Positions 26,350-40,495 of a stretch of DNA of 57,518 nucleotides are shown piece after piece. Source of the DNA: a virus (lineage: Duplodnaviria > Heunggongvirae > Uroviricota > Caudoviricetes); IMG/VR virus record IMGVR_UViG_2861048470_000006; one strand, given 5' to 3'. The notes below the pieces were generated by a model. That model was not told the origin of the DNA and did no database searches. It saw only the letters and a list, made by a program, of their open reading frames with translations. The stretch's first letter is position 1, and every line of letters begins with the position of its first letter. The position numbers and the translations under genes were made by a program.

Positions 26350-26548
26350 CGTAACCTGTCGGATCGCCGGAAAGGACCCGCAAAATGATAATAATTATCA
26401 TCTACATGTCACAACGTGCATCTACGCCATCAAACCACGTCAAATAATCAATTATGACGCAGGTATCGTATTAATTGATCTGCATCAACTTAACGTAAAA
26501 ACAACTTCAGACAATACAAATCAGCGACACTGAATACGGGGCAACCTC

Positions 26549-35682: not shown

Positions 35683-35719
35683 ATCAGAGGTGGCGAGGGA
35701 TTCTCCCCCGCCTGGTCTC

Positions 35720-35875
35720 TTACTCCTCAGGTTCGTAAGCTGTGAAGACAGCGACCTCCGTCTGGCCGGTTCGGATTCGTACCTCGCAGAGGTCTTTCCT
35801 CGTTACCAGTGCCGTCACTATGACGGTTAAACAGATGACGATCAGGGCGATTAACATCGCCTTTTGCTGCTTCAT
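35720..35875 (-). CDS. hokD: Hok-family type I toxin
   Basis: 51-aa product MKQQKAMLIALIVICLTVIVTALVTRKDLCEVRIRTGQTEVAVFTAYEPEE matches Hok/RelF as recalled; track ORF extends upstream in frame. Confidence 0.9.
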   Translation of the reverse strand: MKQQKAMLIALIVICLTVIVTALVTRKDLCEVRIRTGQTEVAVFTAYEPEE

Positions 35876-36086
35876 AGCCTGCTTCTCCTTGCCTTTCGGC
35901 ACGTAAGAGGCTAACCTAGATTTGCCGTTCATAGATTGAGCCTCAGATTAATGTTAAGCGTCTTGCAGGACGCGTAATGTTAACTGGGGCTTTTCTCTAT
36001 CTGCCTTTGGTGTTCATGCCTGAGACAGATAGCCTCAAGCACCCGCAGCCATTCTACTTAACTCCCGTTACCTCGCCAATATAAAA

Positions 36087-36176
36087 TCAATCAGAAAGGC
36101 GATCCATAAGAACAACAGCAAGACAATAAATTGCCATTACAGCTGCAATAGCCAGCGCACATTTGAGAACCAGCAC
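36087..36176 (-). CDS. candidate 29-aa hydrophobic peptide (VLVLKCALAIAAVMAIYCLAVVLMDRLSD), GTG start
   Basis: hand-found; AGGAGG 5 nt upstream of GTG; different frame from the Cys-rich 72-aa track ORF. Confidence 0.3.
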   Translation of the reverse strand: MLVLKCALAIAAVMAIYCLAVVLMDRLSD

Positions 36177-36381
36177 GACAACCTCCTGTATTGGACGTAC
36201 ACCAGTCCTGATAAATATGAGGCTGTCTCATCATTGATGAGATACAACTATTGGGTATAGTTTCTGTGATTTTGTTCTGTAGAAATGGAACACAACAACC
36301 AGTCACCACCAGTACTTCTTTAAATACGCCAAGTCCGACGCAAGCTAACCTTCTAGTCCGCTTTGAGCGAGAAGCGGAAGT

Positions 36382-36648
36382 ATGAAACTTGTTCTCACCA
36401 CCGATGAAGCATTACAAACAATGCAGTTAGTTTATCAACGGGCAGGATCAGGGCGTACTCTCAAGCGGTTTAAGATTGATAACCTCAGGTACATTCATCT
36501 TGCCACGTTTCATATAGCGTATTTGCGACAGAGTTCATGTGAAGAAACACCGACTACGAGGATGATATTCATGTTGTATTGTTCGGGAAATCACTTCTTC
36601 ATATGGAACCCTCATCACACTTACAAAACCATTATTAACATAGCTTAA
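36382..36648 (+). CDS. hypothetical protein
   Basis: 88-aa track ORF, no recognisable motif. Confidence 0.25.
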   Translation: MKLVLTTDEALQTMQLVYQRAGSGRTLKRFKIDNLRYIHLATFHIAYLRQSSCEETPTTRMIFMLYCSGNHFFIWNPHHTYKTIINIA

Positions 36649-36888
36649 GTGTTAATCAAAATTGAGCCATTCACATTACATTAGGTAAGGTATCTTACTA
36701 AAAATATTGTAATGTTTTGTTTTTAAAGATAAAGATTTCAGGTTGAAAACCAAAAATTTTTAGTTAAAAATATTTATGGTGTATGTAAAAAATGATAAGG
36801 TAGTGATAAGACATAAGTTTGTAAAACACATGTTAAATTTCAATGCTGATGAAAAAGCTTAGCGTTAATCAAAACAGGAGCAAGAAGA

Positions 36889-37719
36889 TTGAAAGTTATT
36901 AGCTTAATCAATATGAAAGGTGGCGTTGGTAAGTCAACATTGGCTACCAATATTGCTAATCATCTTTCAGATAAACTTGGGCAAAAAATATTATTAATAG
37001 ATATCGACCCACAATTTAACGCAACGCAATGTGTAATGGATACAAGCAAATATGTTGCACATATGAAAAGCGGAGGCGATAGCATATGTGATATTTTTTA
37101 TAGTTCAAAAATTCGACTATCTACAATGACTGGTCCTTTAGTTAACACACCTAAAGAATTAGCCGATATAACACCAATTCAATTAAATGATAATTTTCAC
37201 ATTGTTCCCGGAAGCCTTGGGCTATATAAAATTGAAATGAAACCAGGAGAAGGGATAGAAAACAAGCTTAGACGCTTTCTTAAAATCCATGAAAATGACT
37301 ATGATTATGTCATAATTGATACCCCACCAACCCCATCAGTTTGGATGTCCAGCGCATTAATTGCATCTGATTATTACCTCATTCCAGCCAAACCCGATCC
37401 TCTTTCGATCACTGGTATCGATCTATTAGATAGCATTATAAATGAGAAGAGAGAAAATTTCGATCTTAAGATTGAATGTGCGGGCATAGTTTTTAATATG
37501 GTTGAAGGTAATAGTAATTTATATGAGGAAAGTCTTCGTTACTTCAATAATCAAAAACGTTGGCGTAATAAGATCTTTAAATCATATTTGAGCAAACGTA
37601 CTGAGTTGGCAAGAAATCAAACAAGAGGCTTATTTATTAACAATTTAACGGATGAGGATATGAAGTTTTCGCTGTCTAAAATTACTGACGAACTTCTCTC
37701 TAGAGTAGGTGACTTATGA
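36889..37719 (+). CDS. ParA/MinD/Soj-family P-loop ATPase
   Basis: 276-aa ORF, TTG start with AGGAG RBS; deviant Walker A KGGVGKST, DIDPQ and Walker B-like VIIDTPP motifs; very AT-rich. Confidence 0.8.
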   Translation: MKVISLINMKGGVGKSTLATNIANHLSDKLGQKILLIDIDPQFNATQCVMDTSKYVAHMKSGGDSICDIFYSSKIRLSTMTGPLVNTPKELADITPIQLNDNFHIVPGSLGLYKIEMKPGEGIENKLRRFLKIHENDYDYVIIDTPPTPSVWMSSALIASDYYLIPAKPDPLSITGIDLLDSIINEKRENFDLKIECAGIVFNMVEGNSNLYEESLRYFNNQKRWRNKIFKSYLSKRTELARNQTRGLFINNLTDEDMKFSLSKITDELLSRVGDL

Positions 37720-38222
37720 CTGACAAAAAAAATAACTCAAAAGAAATTAAGCAACTGTTAAACTTTTTAGAGGAGTTTTCCTTTATTTCAAAAAAATTAT
37801 CAAGAATCAACTTTATTGAATTACTTCAAGATAGTTATACTGATAATTTAGAAGTTAACGAAAGAAATTCAAAGTCCAAAAAAAATGATATTAAAGGTTT
37901 CCTTGTTGGGTATCTTCCGAGGATTTTATTAGACAAAGATCTCTTCCAAAAAAATAAAGATATAGATGATTTTGCACGCATGTTAGGTATCGAAATCAGC
38001 AGGCCTGAAAAAAGATCTAGAGAGGAAATGATCGGCATAATCGTGTGTGACGTTCACGAGAAAAACTCATCCGATTTAGGTAAGGCTTATAATATTATCA
38101 ATTCAATGTCAAATAACCCTCTAGTTTTGAGTAGAATAAAAGAGAGGAAGAACCTTTCTAGCGCTCAAAATGAGATATATGACTGGAATGAAGTTATAAA
38201 AGATATATTCAATAAGGACTAA
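37716..38222 (+). CDS. hypothetical protein, second gene of ParA-like operon
   Basis: 168-aa ORF overlapping ParA stop by 4 nt (ATGA); Lys/Asn-rich; no motif recognised. Confidence 0.5.
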   Translation: MTDKKNNSKEIKQLLNFLEEFSFISKKLSRINFIELLQDSYTDNLEVNERNSKSKKNDIKGFLVGYLPRILLDKDLFQKNKDIDDFARMLGIEISRPEKRSREEMIGIIVCDVHEKNSSDLGKAYNIINSMSNNPLVLSRIKERKNLSSAQNEIYDWNEVIKDIFNKD

Positions 38223-38224
38223 CA

Positions 38225-38920
38225 ATGTCGAGAGAAGTAAACAGCGATTTCACTGAGTTAGTTACTTATTTCTCTGAATATAAATTAAAAAATGTTTTCG
38301 AGAATATTAACTCAAGAGGGAAAATAAGCATGATACATAAGAGATATTATTCTTTTATGTGCCTTGTTTACTGTTTGTATCATTTCTCCAAGGAGAAAAT
38401 AGACGCCAACTCATTGGAGCGATTGCAAGAAGCTTCATCTGACCTTGGTACAGCTATGTTTATGGTTATAAATGGTGCATACAAACCAGCAAATCTAATG
38501 ATGCGAAGTTATATTGAAAATTCTTTAAAATCAATCGGTTGCTTACTAGATCCTTCAATACTTGAAGAAAAATCATTGTTTAAGGTAATTGAACAAACTG
38601 GGGAACATCCTGTCTTCAAAAAAAATCCTCTACTACATGAAACTTTAAAAGCTGAATACTCTTCGTTATGCAGTCACGTACATACAGCTACTGTAAAAGA
38701 AATGGCTCACATAAAAGCTTTAAATGTTTTTCCCGAAATAGACTTGGTTAAAATAGATAATATTTCGAAGGTGATTGATAAGGTGGTTAAGACTATGATA
38801 TCAACTATCATAAGAATTTTTCCTGATGTTTTCTTTTCCTTTGCACCTGAGTATCGAGAAAAAATCCTCCTTAGCTTAACCTCTGCACAACGAGCCTCAC
38901 TTCATTCCTTAAGTGATTAA
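38225..38920 (+). CDS. hypothetical protein, third gene of ParA-like operon
   Basis: 231-aa ORF 2 nt after previous stop; no motif recognised. Confidence 0.5.
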   Translation: MSREVNSDFTELVTYFSEYKLKNVFENINSRGKISMIHKRYYSFMCLVYCLYHFSKEKIDANSLERLQEASSDLGTAMFMVINGAYKPANLMMRSYIENSLKSIGCLLDPSILEEKSLFKVIEQTGEHPVFKKNPLLHETLKAEYSSLCSHVHTATVKEMAHIKALNVFPEIDLVKIDNISKVIDKVVKTMISTIIRIFPDVFFSFAPEYREKILLSLTSAQRASLHSLSD

Positions 38921-38933
38921 CTAACAAGTATGA

Positions 38934-38966
38934 CATAAAAACTATCCTATTGTGATAGTTTTTATG
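38934..38966 (+). terminator. 13-bp-stem hairpin directly after the three-gene operon (putative terminator)
   Basis: CATAAAAACTATC-ctattgt-GATAGTTTTTATG; coordinates anchored to stop at 38918-38920. Confidence 0.4.
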
Positions 38967-39116
38967 TTCATTAAGATGACTATATCAGGAATTATTGCCG
39001 AATTTTAATTTTCATATTGATTTTACTATCTCTCACCAACTCTTGTAAGTATCCTTCCGCCACAAGCGGACCATGTGCATTTAAATATCTGACCTAACGT
39101 GCCGTAACGCCGCAAT

Positions 39117-39140
39117 GTCCGCTTCTGGCACAAAGCAGAC
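39117..39140 (+). repeat. 24-bp imperfect direct repeat, copy A (GTCCGCTTCTGGCACAAAGCAGAC)
   Basis: 20/24 identity with copy B at 42790-42813; internal dyad symmetry GTCCGC...GCAGAC. Confidence 0.4.
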
Positions 39141-39202
39141 GCCCACTCTCACGCGAATGCTTTGCCCTTGACTTGCCAACAACCGTATCGCTTGCTCCGC
39201 AA

Positions 39203-40495
39203 CTATGGTTTTTTATTAGAATCTTCGCCACTAAATAAATTATAATAAATTGATTTTATTAGATATCTGTCAGAATCTATATGGTCAGCACGAGTAGCAT
39301 GCTCTAATGTTTCAAATGCTAGGGTTTGTGCGGCTTCAGCAAAAATTCCAGGCCAACCCTTACTCAGCATCGACAGTCCTTTAAGGATCCTTATCTGAAT
39401 TTCCCTCATACTGGCACCATCGCGCGCAACAGGTGAGAAAAAGTCTTCAAGTAGATCGTTATTCTGAAGTGGTGCAACATGTACAGAAGGATATTTCACT
39501 TCTATTTCATCAGATTTATTCTGCGCGTAAGCGGAAAGTATACGTACACCTCTGCCAATGACATCAATGGCGGTTCCAGGATCGTTCACTGCGGGGGAAA
39601 GGGCTCGGCAGGCTATTTCGGCCATGACGCTAAGACAAAATCGGGGGTCCTGAGCAAATGAACGTACATCCGAGACAATAATCGTCTCAAGTAAATCGGT
39701 GCTGATTGATGACTCCTGGCCCTGACTCAGGTACAAAACTGGCGTGGACGGATGTATGAAACTGCCCGGCTGCGCCACGAGGTATACATGACGGGGATCA
39801 TTGGTCAGCAGCTTGCTGAGTTTCACCATATCAACATATTCAACATAGCCAATCTTTTTCGGATAAACTGCAACCGTTCCTTTCGGCTGTTCATTGTTCT
39901 CAAGCCATGGATATCCGCCGAGACAGGGATTTCTTGCTCTCGCAATAAATGTTTCGATGGCCGCCTGTTCTACTTTTGCCGTTGTCTCACCAACCCTCCC
40001 CAGAGAGGTCAAATGCTGTATCCAGCGAAGCAATGTGATGAGGATTAAGGCAATGACAACCAGTGTTACAATGAATAAAATGACTCTCCCCCTTTCTCCA
40101 TAAGCTCCCATATTGAGGGCAATAATCCCTACCAGACTGAAGAGAAAAGAACCGATGAAGGTGGCCAGTACATTTTGTGTGGTGACGTCTTCAACAACTA
40201 AACGAGTAGCTCTGGGAGTCACATTAGTAGTGGCTGAACCGTAGGCTGTGACCATGATGCTCAGCGAAAATGTGGTCACTGCCAGCATACTCGATGCCAG
40301 TATGTTCAGAATGTTATCGACTGCTTCCGCACCAACCTTCACGGAAACCGACTCAGGTATCATTGATTTAAAAAGAATTGATAAAAGGGCCGTTATTATT
40401 GCGACAATTGCGAATAACGTTGCCCTGAACCATAGTTTTTTAAATGTCTGCTTCAGCATCCATTTCCAGCGTGAAATCATTCTGCATTCCCTCAT
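39203..40495 (-). CDS. DUF2254-like multi-TM membrane protein
   Basis: 430-aa ORF with N-terminal TM helices and large soluble C-terminal domain; family from recollection. Confidence 0.5.
   Translation of the reverse strand: MRECRMISRWKWMLKQTFKKLWFRATLFAIVAIITALLSILFKSMIPESVSVKVGAEAVDNILNILASSMLAVTTFSLSIMVTAYGSATTNVTPRATRLVVEDVTTQNVLATFIGSFLFSLVGIIALNMGAYGERGRVILFIVTLVVIALILITLLRWIQHLTSLGRVGETTAKVEQAAIETFIARARNPCLGGYPWLENNEQPKGTVAVYPKKIGYVEYVDMVKLSKLLTNDPRHVYLVAQPGSFIHPSTPVLYLSQGQESSISTDLLETIIVSDVRSFAQDPRFCLSVMAEIACRALSPAVNDPGTAIDVIGRGVRILSAYAQNKSDEIEVKYPSVHVAPLQNNDLLEDFFSPVARDGASMREIQIRILKGLSMLSKGWPGIFAEAAQTLAFETLEHATRADHIDSDRYLIKSIYYNLFSGEDSNKKP

Follow-up and report, generated by a model that had tools for sequence, protein, structure and literature searches.

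A probable 29-codon membrane-peptide gene with its own promoter-like site, next to hok in lambdoid prophages of Escherichia

Is a very short open reading frame (ORF) beside a hok toxin locus a gene in its own right, or an accident of the DNA in which it lies? The question is raised by a stretch of 57,518 nucleotides (nt), called here the window, from a virus of the Caudoviricetes (IMG/VR virus record IMGVR_UViG_2861048470_000006). An earlier note, made from the letters alone, had pointed out in it a 29-codon ORF opened by AGGAGG-5nt-GTG, in a frame missing from the list of predicted ORFs, with a 17-bp palindrome upstream. The comparisons described below make it probable that the ORF is a true gene under selection of its own, which encodes a single-pass inner-membrane peptide of 29 residues and is carried as a cassette with its own promoter-like site.

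All the coordinates given for the small ORF in that note hold (Table 1). The GTG codon (36176-36174, minus strand) is the earliest possible start after the upstream in-frame stop, and the frame closes with TGA at 36089-36087, giving the product VLVLKCALAIAAVMAIYCLAVVLMDRLSD. Its description as one predicted transmembrane (TM) helix with a short acidic tail was equally accurate, with a mean Kyte-Doolittle value of +2.7 over a 19-residue core (residues 6-24) and a C-terminal tail DRLSD. Another ORF of 72 amino acids (aa), located at 36309..36091, overlaps the small ORF on the same strand in a different frame.

Homologues were gathered by BLASTN against Escherichia coli genomes, by a one-genome-per-species scan, by two IMG/VR scans and by tblastn against phages and plasmids; pooled, they amount to ~170 loci and 33-39 distinct ORF alleles. 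Since the degenerate DNA pattern used in the species-level scan and in one of the IMG/VR scans constrains the 3' half of the ORF, and thereby biases the sample, we have repeated the selection tests on an unbiased set of 121 loci, found solely by a 5'-leader pattern, BLASTN or tblastn. The same start and stop are preserved in 115 of these loci; the stop has been lost, with a short extension, in five, and one has a frameshift. Within codons 3-29 of this set, 19 of the 40 distinct substitution events are synonymous in the peptide frame (10.6 +/- 2.3 expected under random placement, P=0.0006), whereas the same 40 events include only 9 synonymous ones in the 72-aa frame, and 10 synonymous ones together with 4 new stops in the third sense frame. 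The excess is also found when codons 3-15 are taken by themselves (P=0.004), and with all loci pooled 23 of 45 events are synonymous in the peptide frame. Along the same lines, the pairwise ratio of nonsynonymous to synonymous divergence (pN/pS) is 0.36 in the peptide frame; the two other sense frames give 0.77 and 0.88, and the antisense strand 0.49-0.84. Most of the amino acid replacements are conservative (exchanges within A/V/T/I/L/M, and D to E, S to T, L to F), with a few that are less so (C to G/Y/F, R to H). ATG replaces GTG at the same position in two separate divergent lineages, the class represented by locus L002 and the copies on the virulence plasmid (pINV) of Shigella and enteroinvasive E. 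coli (EIEC), and the L002 class has also suffered an in-frame 3-nt (one-codon) deletion within the small ORF.

This comparison of frames supports what the earlier note had suspected, namely that the conserved frame is the one of 29 aa and that the 72-aa ORF is a frame artefact; the N-terminal half of the latter is made of DNA that is unrelated in several homologous loci. The open frame is weak evidence by itself, because a frame this short often survives by chance (about 0.5 new stops are expected under the null, and the chance of seeing none is 0.59). The marks of a protein-coding small gene that we do find are purifying selection specific to one frame, and a start codon, a Shine-Dalgarno sequence (in nearly all leader classes) and a stop codon at fixed positions.

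A way to look at the ORF independently of its neighbours is to ask how far the similarity extends among divergent loci. When five of them were aligned, the shared sequence began only at the -35 box and ended ~17 nt beyond the stop codon; in some of these loci the flanks are unrelated on either side, and at least five upstream classes could be distinguished. At the upstream end of the shared region TTGAAT, TTGAAG, TTGAGT or TTGCTG is followed by exactly 17 nt and then CATATT, across at least five unrelated spacer sequences. The start codon follows the -10 box at 37 nt in nearly all classes and at 36 nt in three, and the Shine-Dalgarno sequence is retained as AGGAGG, AGGAGA or GGGAGG across unrelated leader classes. 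Such conservation of hexamers and spacing is what a working sigma-70 promoter would show, and a promoter of this kind is predicted here. A census of ~178 loci gave TTGAAT as the -35 box in ~120, TTGAAG in 25 and TCTCAT, the version found in the window, in 16. Phages Tritos and mEp460 are among the carriers of an intact TTGAAT.

The relationship with hok is close in space, as the earlier note had stated. RefSeq annotates hokD in a genome identical to the window, the hok/sok leader model of Rfam (RF01794) matches 36044..35870 on the minus strand with 110 bits, and hok is found immediately downstream of the small ORF in ~88-90% of loci. The small ORF nevertheless lies outside the hok transcript, because 8 nt separate its end from the hok -35 box and the hok leader begins further downstream. 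No hok is present downstream in 16 of 162 loci, where the ORF precedes a convergent DUF1971 gene and its terminator, and many hok loci, for example hokW of the Shiga toxin (Stx) phages, share only the hok promoter and leader and are devoid of the cassette. In class B and in the L002 class the ORF is more diverged than the hok region, a sign that the two have separate histories. The obligate linkage or shared transcript that would identify an upstream ORF or leader peptide of hok was thus not found, the hok promoter-like site being located downstream of the ORF.

Of 5426 complete E. coli genomes, 1957 contain the 136-nt segment comprising leader and ORF, some of them as many as three times; the copies in E. 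coli number roughly 2,200 in all. NZ_CP025916.1, which is identical to the window, has it at three places (one of the other copies is 100% identical), and therefore several prophages of one cell carry the gene. Nothing was found outside Escherichia and Shigella in the species-level scan (which is limited by its pattern), the phage search or the plasmid search. Within the 10-kb Qin segment, the only part of K-12 searched, the gene is missing, because there relBE is directly upstream of hokD and relE abuts it; this absence is the likely reason why the gene was missed. The K-12 protein YnfS, encoded in Qin and also of 29 aa, was considered as a homologue and rejected as unrelated.

No significant Pfam, NCBIfam or PHROG family match was obtained for the peptide and no Rfam family covers the ORF. 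A search among 5.8 billion proteins gave no named homologue, only 'hypothetical' or 'putative membrane protein' entries, all of them from Escherichia, and the peptide string appears in no paper's main text. The claim that the ORF is unannotated is correct for RefSeq, where nearly all of the ~160 matches listed coincide with no annotated feature; the one exception among them is a BL21 derivative, in which the match overlaps an annotated DUF977 coding sequence (CDS). A few other annotations do call the ORF, as a GenBank 'hypothetical protein' (GCZ25347.1) and, in REL606 and BL21(DE3), as a conserved hypothetical or membrane protein; in BL21 the predicted start is the GTG of ...AGGAGATTTATGTGCTGG... 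In the BL21(DE3) derivative (L197, 2480-2565) a deletion has fused the DUF977 gene to the leader of the small ORF and removed the promoter, and the DUF977 reading frame now terminates inside the small ORF.

The independence of the cassette is plainest on pINV, where the peptide frame is preserved intact beside decayed hok sequences. A copy is present in 135 of the 143 plasmid matches, including 124 Shigella records, at 60-80% identity (79% in every such match listed). In pWR100 it encodes MLVLKGTLAIAAVMTIYCLIVVLMERFSD from an ATG start (L193 3501-3590, equivalent to pWR100 90997..90908, minus strand) and retains TTGAGT-17-CATATT and AGGAGG, while the hok promoter and leader that follow the small ORF have decayed and are cut off by the AT-rich icsP promoter. 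The identity to the window falls accordingly from 86% in the leader and 82% in the ORF to 74% in the hok promoter and 57% in the truncated remnant of the hok leader. An intact peptide gene next to a decayed hok promoter and leader identifies this part of pINV as a relic of a lambdoid prophage. Measured upstream, the copy is ~260-350 bp away from the icsP start codon and ~200-290 bp away from the icsP transcription start, inside a much-studied regulatory region, so that reporter constructs of the icsP upstream region carry the gene unnoticed. The Prokka annotation in the differential RNA sequencing (dRNA-seq) paper on strain M90T does call a 29-aa CDS on pWR100. No matching virulence-plasmid entry exists in a small ORF (sORF) screen of Shigella. 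The screen of Shigella flexneri 301 (PMC3071730, Table 2) lists a 29-codon chromosomal candidate, BIO00790 (2213607-2213521), verified by reverse transcription PCR, which by its size and setting might belong to the family of the small ORF.

Taken together, these observations are best explained by an uncharacterised family within a familiar kind of gene, a real and autonomous small membrane-protein gene as judged from comparative sequence data. It would be carried by Qin-type lambdoid prophages of Escherichia, in their nin/early-right region, and by the pINV of Shigella and EIEC, where it is a relic. The putative cassette, of ~175 bp, would consist of the sigma-70 promoter-like site, a leader of ~30 nt, the strong Shine-Dalgarno sequence, a GTG or ATG start, 29 codons and TGA, and may be transcribed independently in the lysogen, in the manner of a moron. 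The peptide is predicted to insert in the inner membrane with its N terminus inside (K5 inside, the acidic DRLSD tail outside) and to act there. As in prophage morons, the (predicted) promoter-like site is conserved independently of the flanks, although its window copy is devoid of a -35 box, and the gene sits in the lambdoid nin region beside a slot for variable cargo; unlike them, it has no detected terminator of its own before hok. The peptide also resembles the small membrane proteins of the MgtS, MgrB, AcrZ, KdpF and PmrR class, which are of ~30 to 50 aa, have a single TM helix and their own ribosome-binding site and are missed by annotation pipelines. These, however, belong to the core genome and have known partners, whereas the small peptide is found on mobile elements only and has no homology to them.

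Several results weigh against such a gene and have to be kept in mind. Codons 16-29, the 3' half of the ORF, show no synonymous excess by themselves (P=0.28). The distribution of substitutions by codon position (11/11/20) is not significantly enriched in third positions by chi-square (p=0.15), which is the reason why the permutation test on event placement was adopted. In the class-B alleles the GTG is preceded, at a distance of 2 nt, by an ATG that is out of frame, and in two loci the Shine-Dalgarno sequence and the -10 box are decaying. The window itself has had its -35 box destroyed by the change that completes the palindrome. Between the stop codon of the small ORF (36087) and the start of the hok mRNA (36044) there is no terminator-like site. 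The transcription-start table for M90T (S. flexneri at 37 degrees C in tryptic soy broth, a single growth condition, on the same assembly as L193) has icsP starts at 90,709 and 90,726 and then none on either strand up to 91,318, the start predicted at ~91,027 being undetected; the DNA at that place may, however, be silenced by H-NS. Finally, the function can only be guessed at, the best guess being a membrane-active, toxin-like factor or a modulator of a host membrane protein.

If the peptide is made, a conserved gene for a membrane protein, missing from the RefSeq annotation, is present in about a third of the complete E. coli genomes and in the matching virulence plasmids of Shigella and EIEC. 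Its position at the edge of a variable cargo slot (some of the cargo is defence-like) and beside a known type I toxin makes it an inexpensive and clearly defined subject for work on small proteins, phage-host relations or toxins.

The proximity of hok brings up a different possibility, that of a new type I toxin-antitoxin system in which the peptide would be the toxin. Translation would then be blocked by a cis-antisense or divergent small RNA, or by pairing of the leader with the 3' end of the ORF, and the peptide would depolarise the membrane like Hok, TisB or ZorO. We regard this as rather unlikely, and a type I toxin status of the peptide is unproven. The earlier note had called the architecture typical of such toxins, and this part of its claim stands: with 29 aa and a predicted TM helix the peptide conforms to the size and hydrophobicity of the class (<60 aa, predicted TM helix), its charged tail fits too, and it is found on mobile elements beside another type I toxin. 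A partner RNA, by which such systems are defined, was not found. A promoter-like site on the plus strand, TTAACT-18-TAAAAT (36058-36087), would read antisense through the small ORF, and a convergent antisense promoter of this kind was one of the things the note had proposed to look for; it occurs, however, only in the window and in two other representatives (L012 and L029), it is absent from the hok-less and pINV copies, and no antisense promoter-like site is common to the 13 representative alleles. The M90T table contains no antisense transcription start either. Short direct repeats (36174-36183 with 36291-36300, and 36200-36209 with 36307-36316) had hinted at a divergently encoded antisense RNA able to pair with the ribosome-binding site, an idea which was rejected because the duplex energy is no better than that of shuffles (53% of them give equal or better pairing between the divergent upstream region and the leader).

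Pairing within the mRNA is harder to judge. A 13-bp helix proposed by RNAalifold would pair the leader and Shine-Dalgarno sequence (36196-36182) with the end of the ORF (36098-36086). It can form in 95.9% of sequence-by-pair cells over 15 divergent alleles and would suit a type I toxin. Against this, none of its pairs shows a compensatory change, it fares no better than the shuffle control, and the folding z-score is -0.96. A terminator-like hairpin inside the ORF (36152-36133) was set aside, its stem being weak and, by eye, not conserved in comparison with the L003 allele.

The comparison with known toxins is similarly divided. Like the Hok/Gef toxins, the product is a small peptide with an N-terminal TM helix carried by the same prophages and plasmids, and hokD is adjacent on the same strand, each gene having its own promoter-like site. 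Unlike them, it has no sequence similarity to the family (three or four alleles gave no Pfam or NCBIfam match to Hok/Gef, PF01848, at E<=10, nor is there a match to any other known toxin family in these databases), it is 29 aa long versus the 51 aa of HokD and has no equivalent of the periplasmic C-terminal domain of Hok, and its gene has no mok-like overlapping frame, no conserved antisense promoter of the Sok type and no Rfam match over the ORF. The toxins of the TisB/IstR-1, ZorO/OrzO, ShoB/OhsC, DinQ/AgrB and Ibs/Sib pairs have a similar length and a single hydrophobic helix (TisB and ZorO are 29 aa long), and here a leader pairing that might mask the Shine-Dalgarno sequence is possible. 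Yet no partner RNA and no sequence similarity were found, and where these toxins have a long structured leader that needs processing, the small gene has one of ~30 nt and a strong Shine-Dalgarno sequence that is apparently exposed.

A bolder version of the membrane-peptide gene would have the peptide found a new mobile-element family of membrane toxins or phage-exclusion factors, occurring in Escherichia and Shigella only and controlled by pairing of the Shine-Dalgarno sequence with the ORF end and by promoter switching, not by antisense RNA. The pINV copy would in that case encode a virulence-plasmid small protein not yet described, which H-NS/VirB might control. We hold this whole combination to be improbable.

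That there is no gene at all, and that a chance open frame lies in DNA conserved for other reasons (control upstream of the hok promoter, or the boundary of the cargo slot), seems to us more improbable still. The shortness of the ORF, in which random change would hardly be expected to create a stop, lends itself to this explanation, as do the missing RefSeq call, the missing transcription start in Shigella and the way in which the ORF abuts the hok promoter. It does not account for a synonymous excess restricted to the peptide frame, for a start that survives changes from GTG to ATG, for a sole indel that is in frame, for a Shine-Dalgarno sequence at fixed spacing across unrelated leaders or for the persistence of the cassette where hok is missing.

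Only a slight chance can be given to the idea that the cassette acts in cis on hok, by read-through into a 5'-extended hok mRNA or by promoter occlusion, with a peptide as incidental as that of an upstream ORF. The stop codon is indeed 8 nt from the hok -35 box with no terminator in between, and most loci have hok immediately downstream. Nevertheless, it is the peptide sequence itself that is under selection, the ORF persists in 16 of 162 loci and in all the pINV copies although no functional hok follows it, the homology to hokW of Stx phages and to many other hok loci starts only at the hok promoter, and ORF and hok region have the separate histories described above for class B and the L002 class.

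The palindrome upstream of the separately selected peptide gene, which the earlier note put ~50 bp away and considered a possible operator, is real and a perfect 8-1-8. As a conserved operator it is not supported, being present in 16 of ~178 loci (~9%), while most loci carry the -35 box in its place. The window contains four 8-1-8 palindromes, against ~0.8 expected from shuffles, so that this one is unremarkable by itself. It differs from the majority sequence by three adjacent substitutions (TTGAAT to TCTCAT), by which the left arm becomes the exact complement of the pre-existing right arm TGATGAGA. Templated quasi-palindrome correction is an established mutational mechanism, and we read the three-base change as a product of it. 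The own promoter of the small ORF is probably weakened in the window, because its -35 box has been overwritten by this change. An association of the palindrome with the ParA-family cargo of the window was rejected, since only 3 of the 16 palindrome loci share that cargo. The divergent promoter-like site, whose -35 box lies inside the palindrome and which is intact in the window (Table 1), is kept as TTGATT or GTGATT, 16 nt and TATAGT in the class-A loci examined; it faces the cargo and points away from the small ORF, and the two promoters would therefore be back to back. An operator, through which a repressor would control the small ORF or the divergent cargo operon, is just as hard to credit as an action in cis on hok, for in spite of the perfect symmetry, the overlap with the -35 positions of both promoter-like sites and the occurrence on two slightly different backgrounds (centre base A or C on the minus strand), it has against it the few loci that carry it, the few of these that share the ParA cargo, the signature of templated correction and the frequency of such palindromes in the window. 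More generally, a templated change of three bases can yield a striking palindrome, and a comparative check is needed before reading it as an operator.

Table 1. Position of the small ORF, its putative signals and the adjoining hok locus in the window
Feature	Coordinates	Strand	Remarks
Small ORF	36087..36176	-	29 codons, GTG start, TGA stop; encodes VLVLKCALAIAAVMAIYCLAVVLMDRLSD, predicted single TM helix
Shine-Dalgarno sequence AGGAGG	36182..36187	-	5 nt (TTGTC) before GTG
Predicted 5' leader	36177..36207	-	Putative start at ~36207, 7 nt past the -10 box; contains conserved TACGTC
-10 box CATATT of the small ORF promoter-like site	36214..36219	-	Nearly invariant across at least five unrelated spacer/upstream classes
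-35 box position	36237..36242	-	TCTCAT in the window; TTGAAT or TTGAAG in most loci
Perfect 8-1-8 palindrome TCTCATCA-T-TGATGAGA	36226..36242	.	50 nt from GTG; derived variant
Divergent promoter-like site TTGATG-16-TATAGT	36234..36261	+	-35 box inside the palindrome; intact in the window
3' arm CCTTTCTGATTGA of possible long-range helix	36086..36098	-	Includes the stop codon; RNAalifold consensus
hok promoter-like site TTGGCG-17-TAGAAT	36051..36079	-	Starts 8 nt past the small ORF stop
hok/mok/sok locus	35720..36044	-	Neighbour, no part of the small gene; leader from 36044; mok ORF 35932..35720; hokD CDS 35875..35720

With regard to the wider surroundings, the window corresponds to a Qin-type lambdoid prophage at the rspAB/ynfA site, with the minus-strand order repressor, cro, a DUF977 replication-region gene, cargo, small ORF, hokD, a 92-aa ORF, DUF968, RusA and Q. 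In several related prophages (L002, L004, L005 and L196) and in K-12, rem is found between hokD and the 92-aa ORF, and it is absent from the window (35683-35720). The cargo slot between the DUF977 gene and the small ORF/hok pair (36243-40400 in the window) is variable, as seen by comparison with L002-L005, L196 and L197. In the window it holds IS3, IS100, a BCCT transporter, DUF2254, two hypotheticals and a ParA-family ATPase gene, for which PADLOC returned only a weak P-loop match; elsewhere the cargo is an ABC-three-component system, SIR2, QueH or relBE (K-12), and a BL21 derivative has none. Directly upstream of the ParA-family gene there is an 88-aa ORF (36382-36648, plus strand) with no RefSeq annotation in the identical genome and no PADLOC match. 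The end of the slot next to the small ORF is a non-coding block of ~143 nt (36243-36385), conserved in all class-A loci regardless of the cargo beyond it, which contains a hairpin CCGCTT...AAGCGG without a T-run. Far from the small ORF, in the late region of the prophage, another perfect 8-1-8 palindrome, ATGATAATAATTATCAT, is located at 26385-26401 between the ylcI and nohD homologues. It matches the 7-1-7 consensus of the Fur box, TGATAATnATTATCA.

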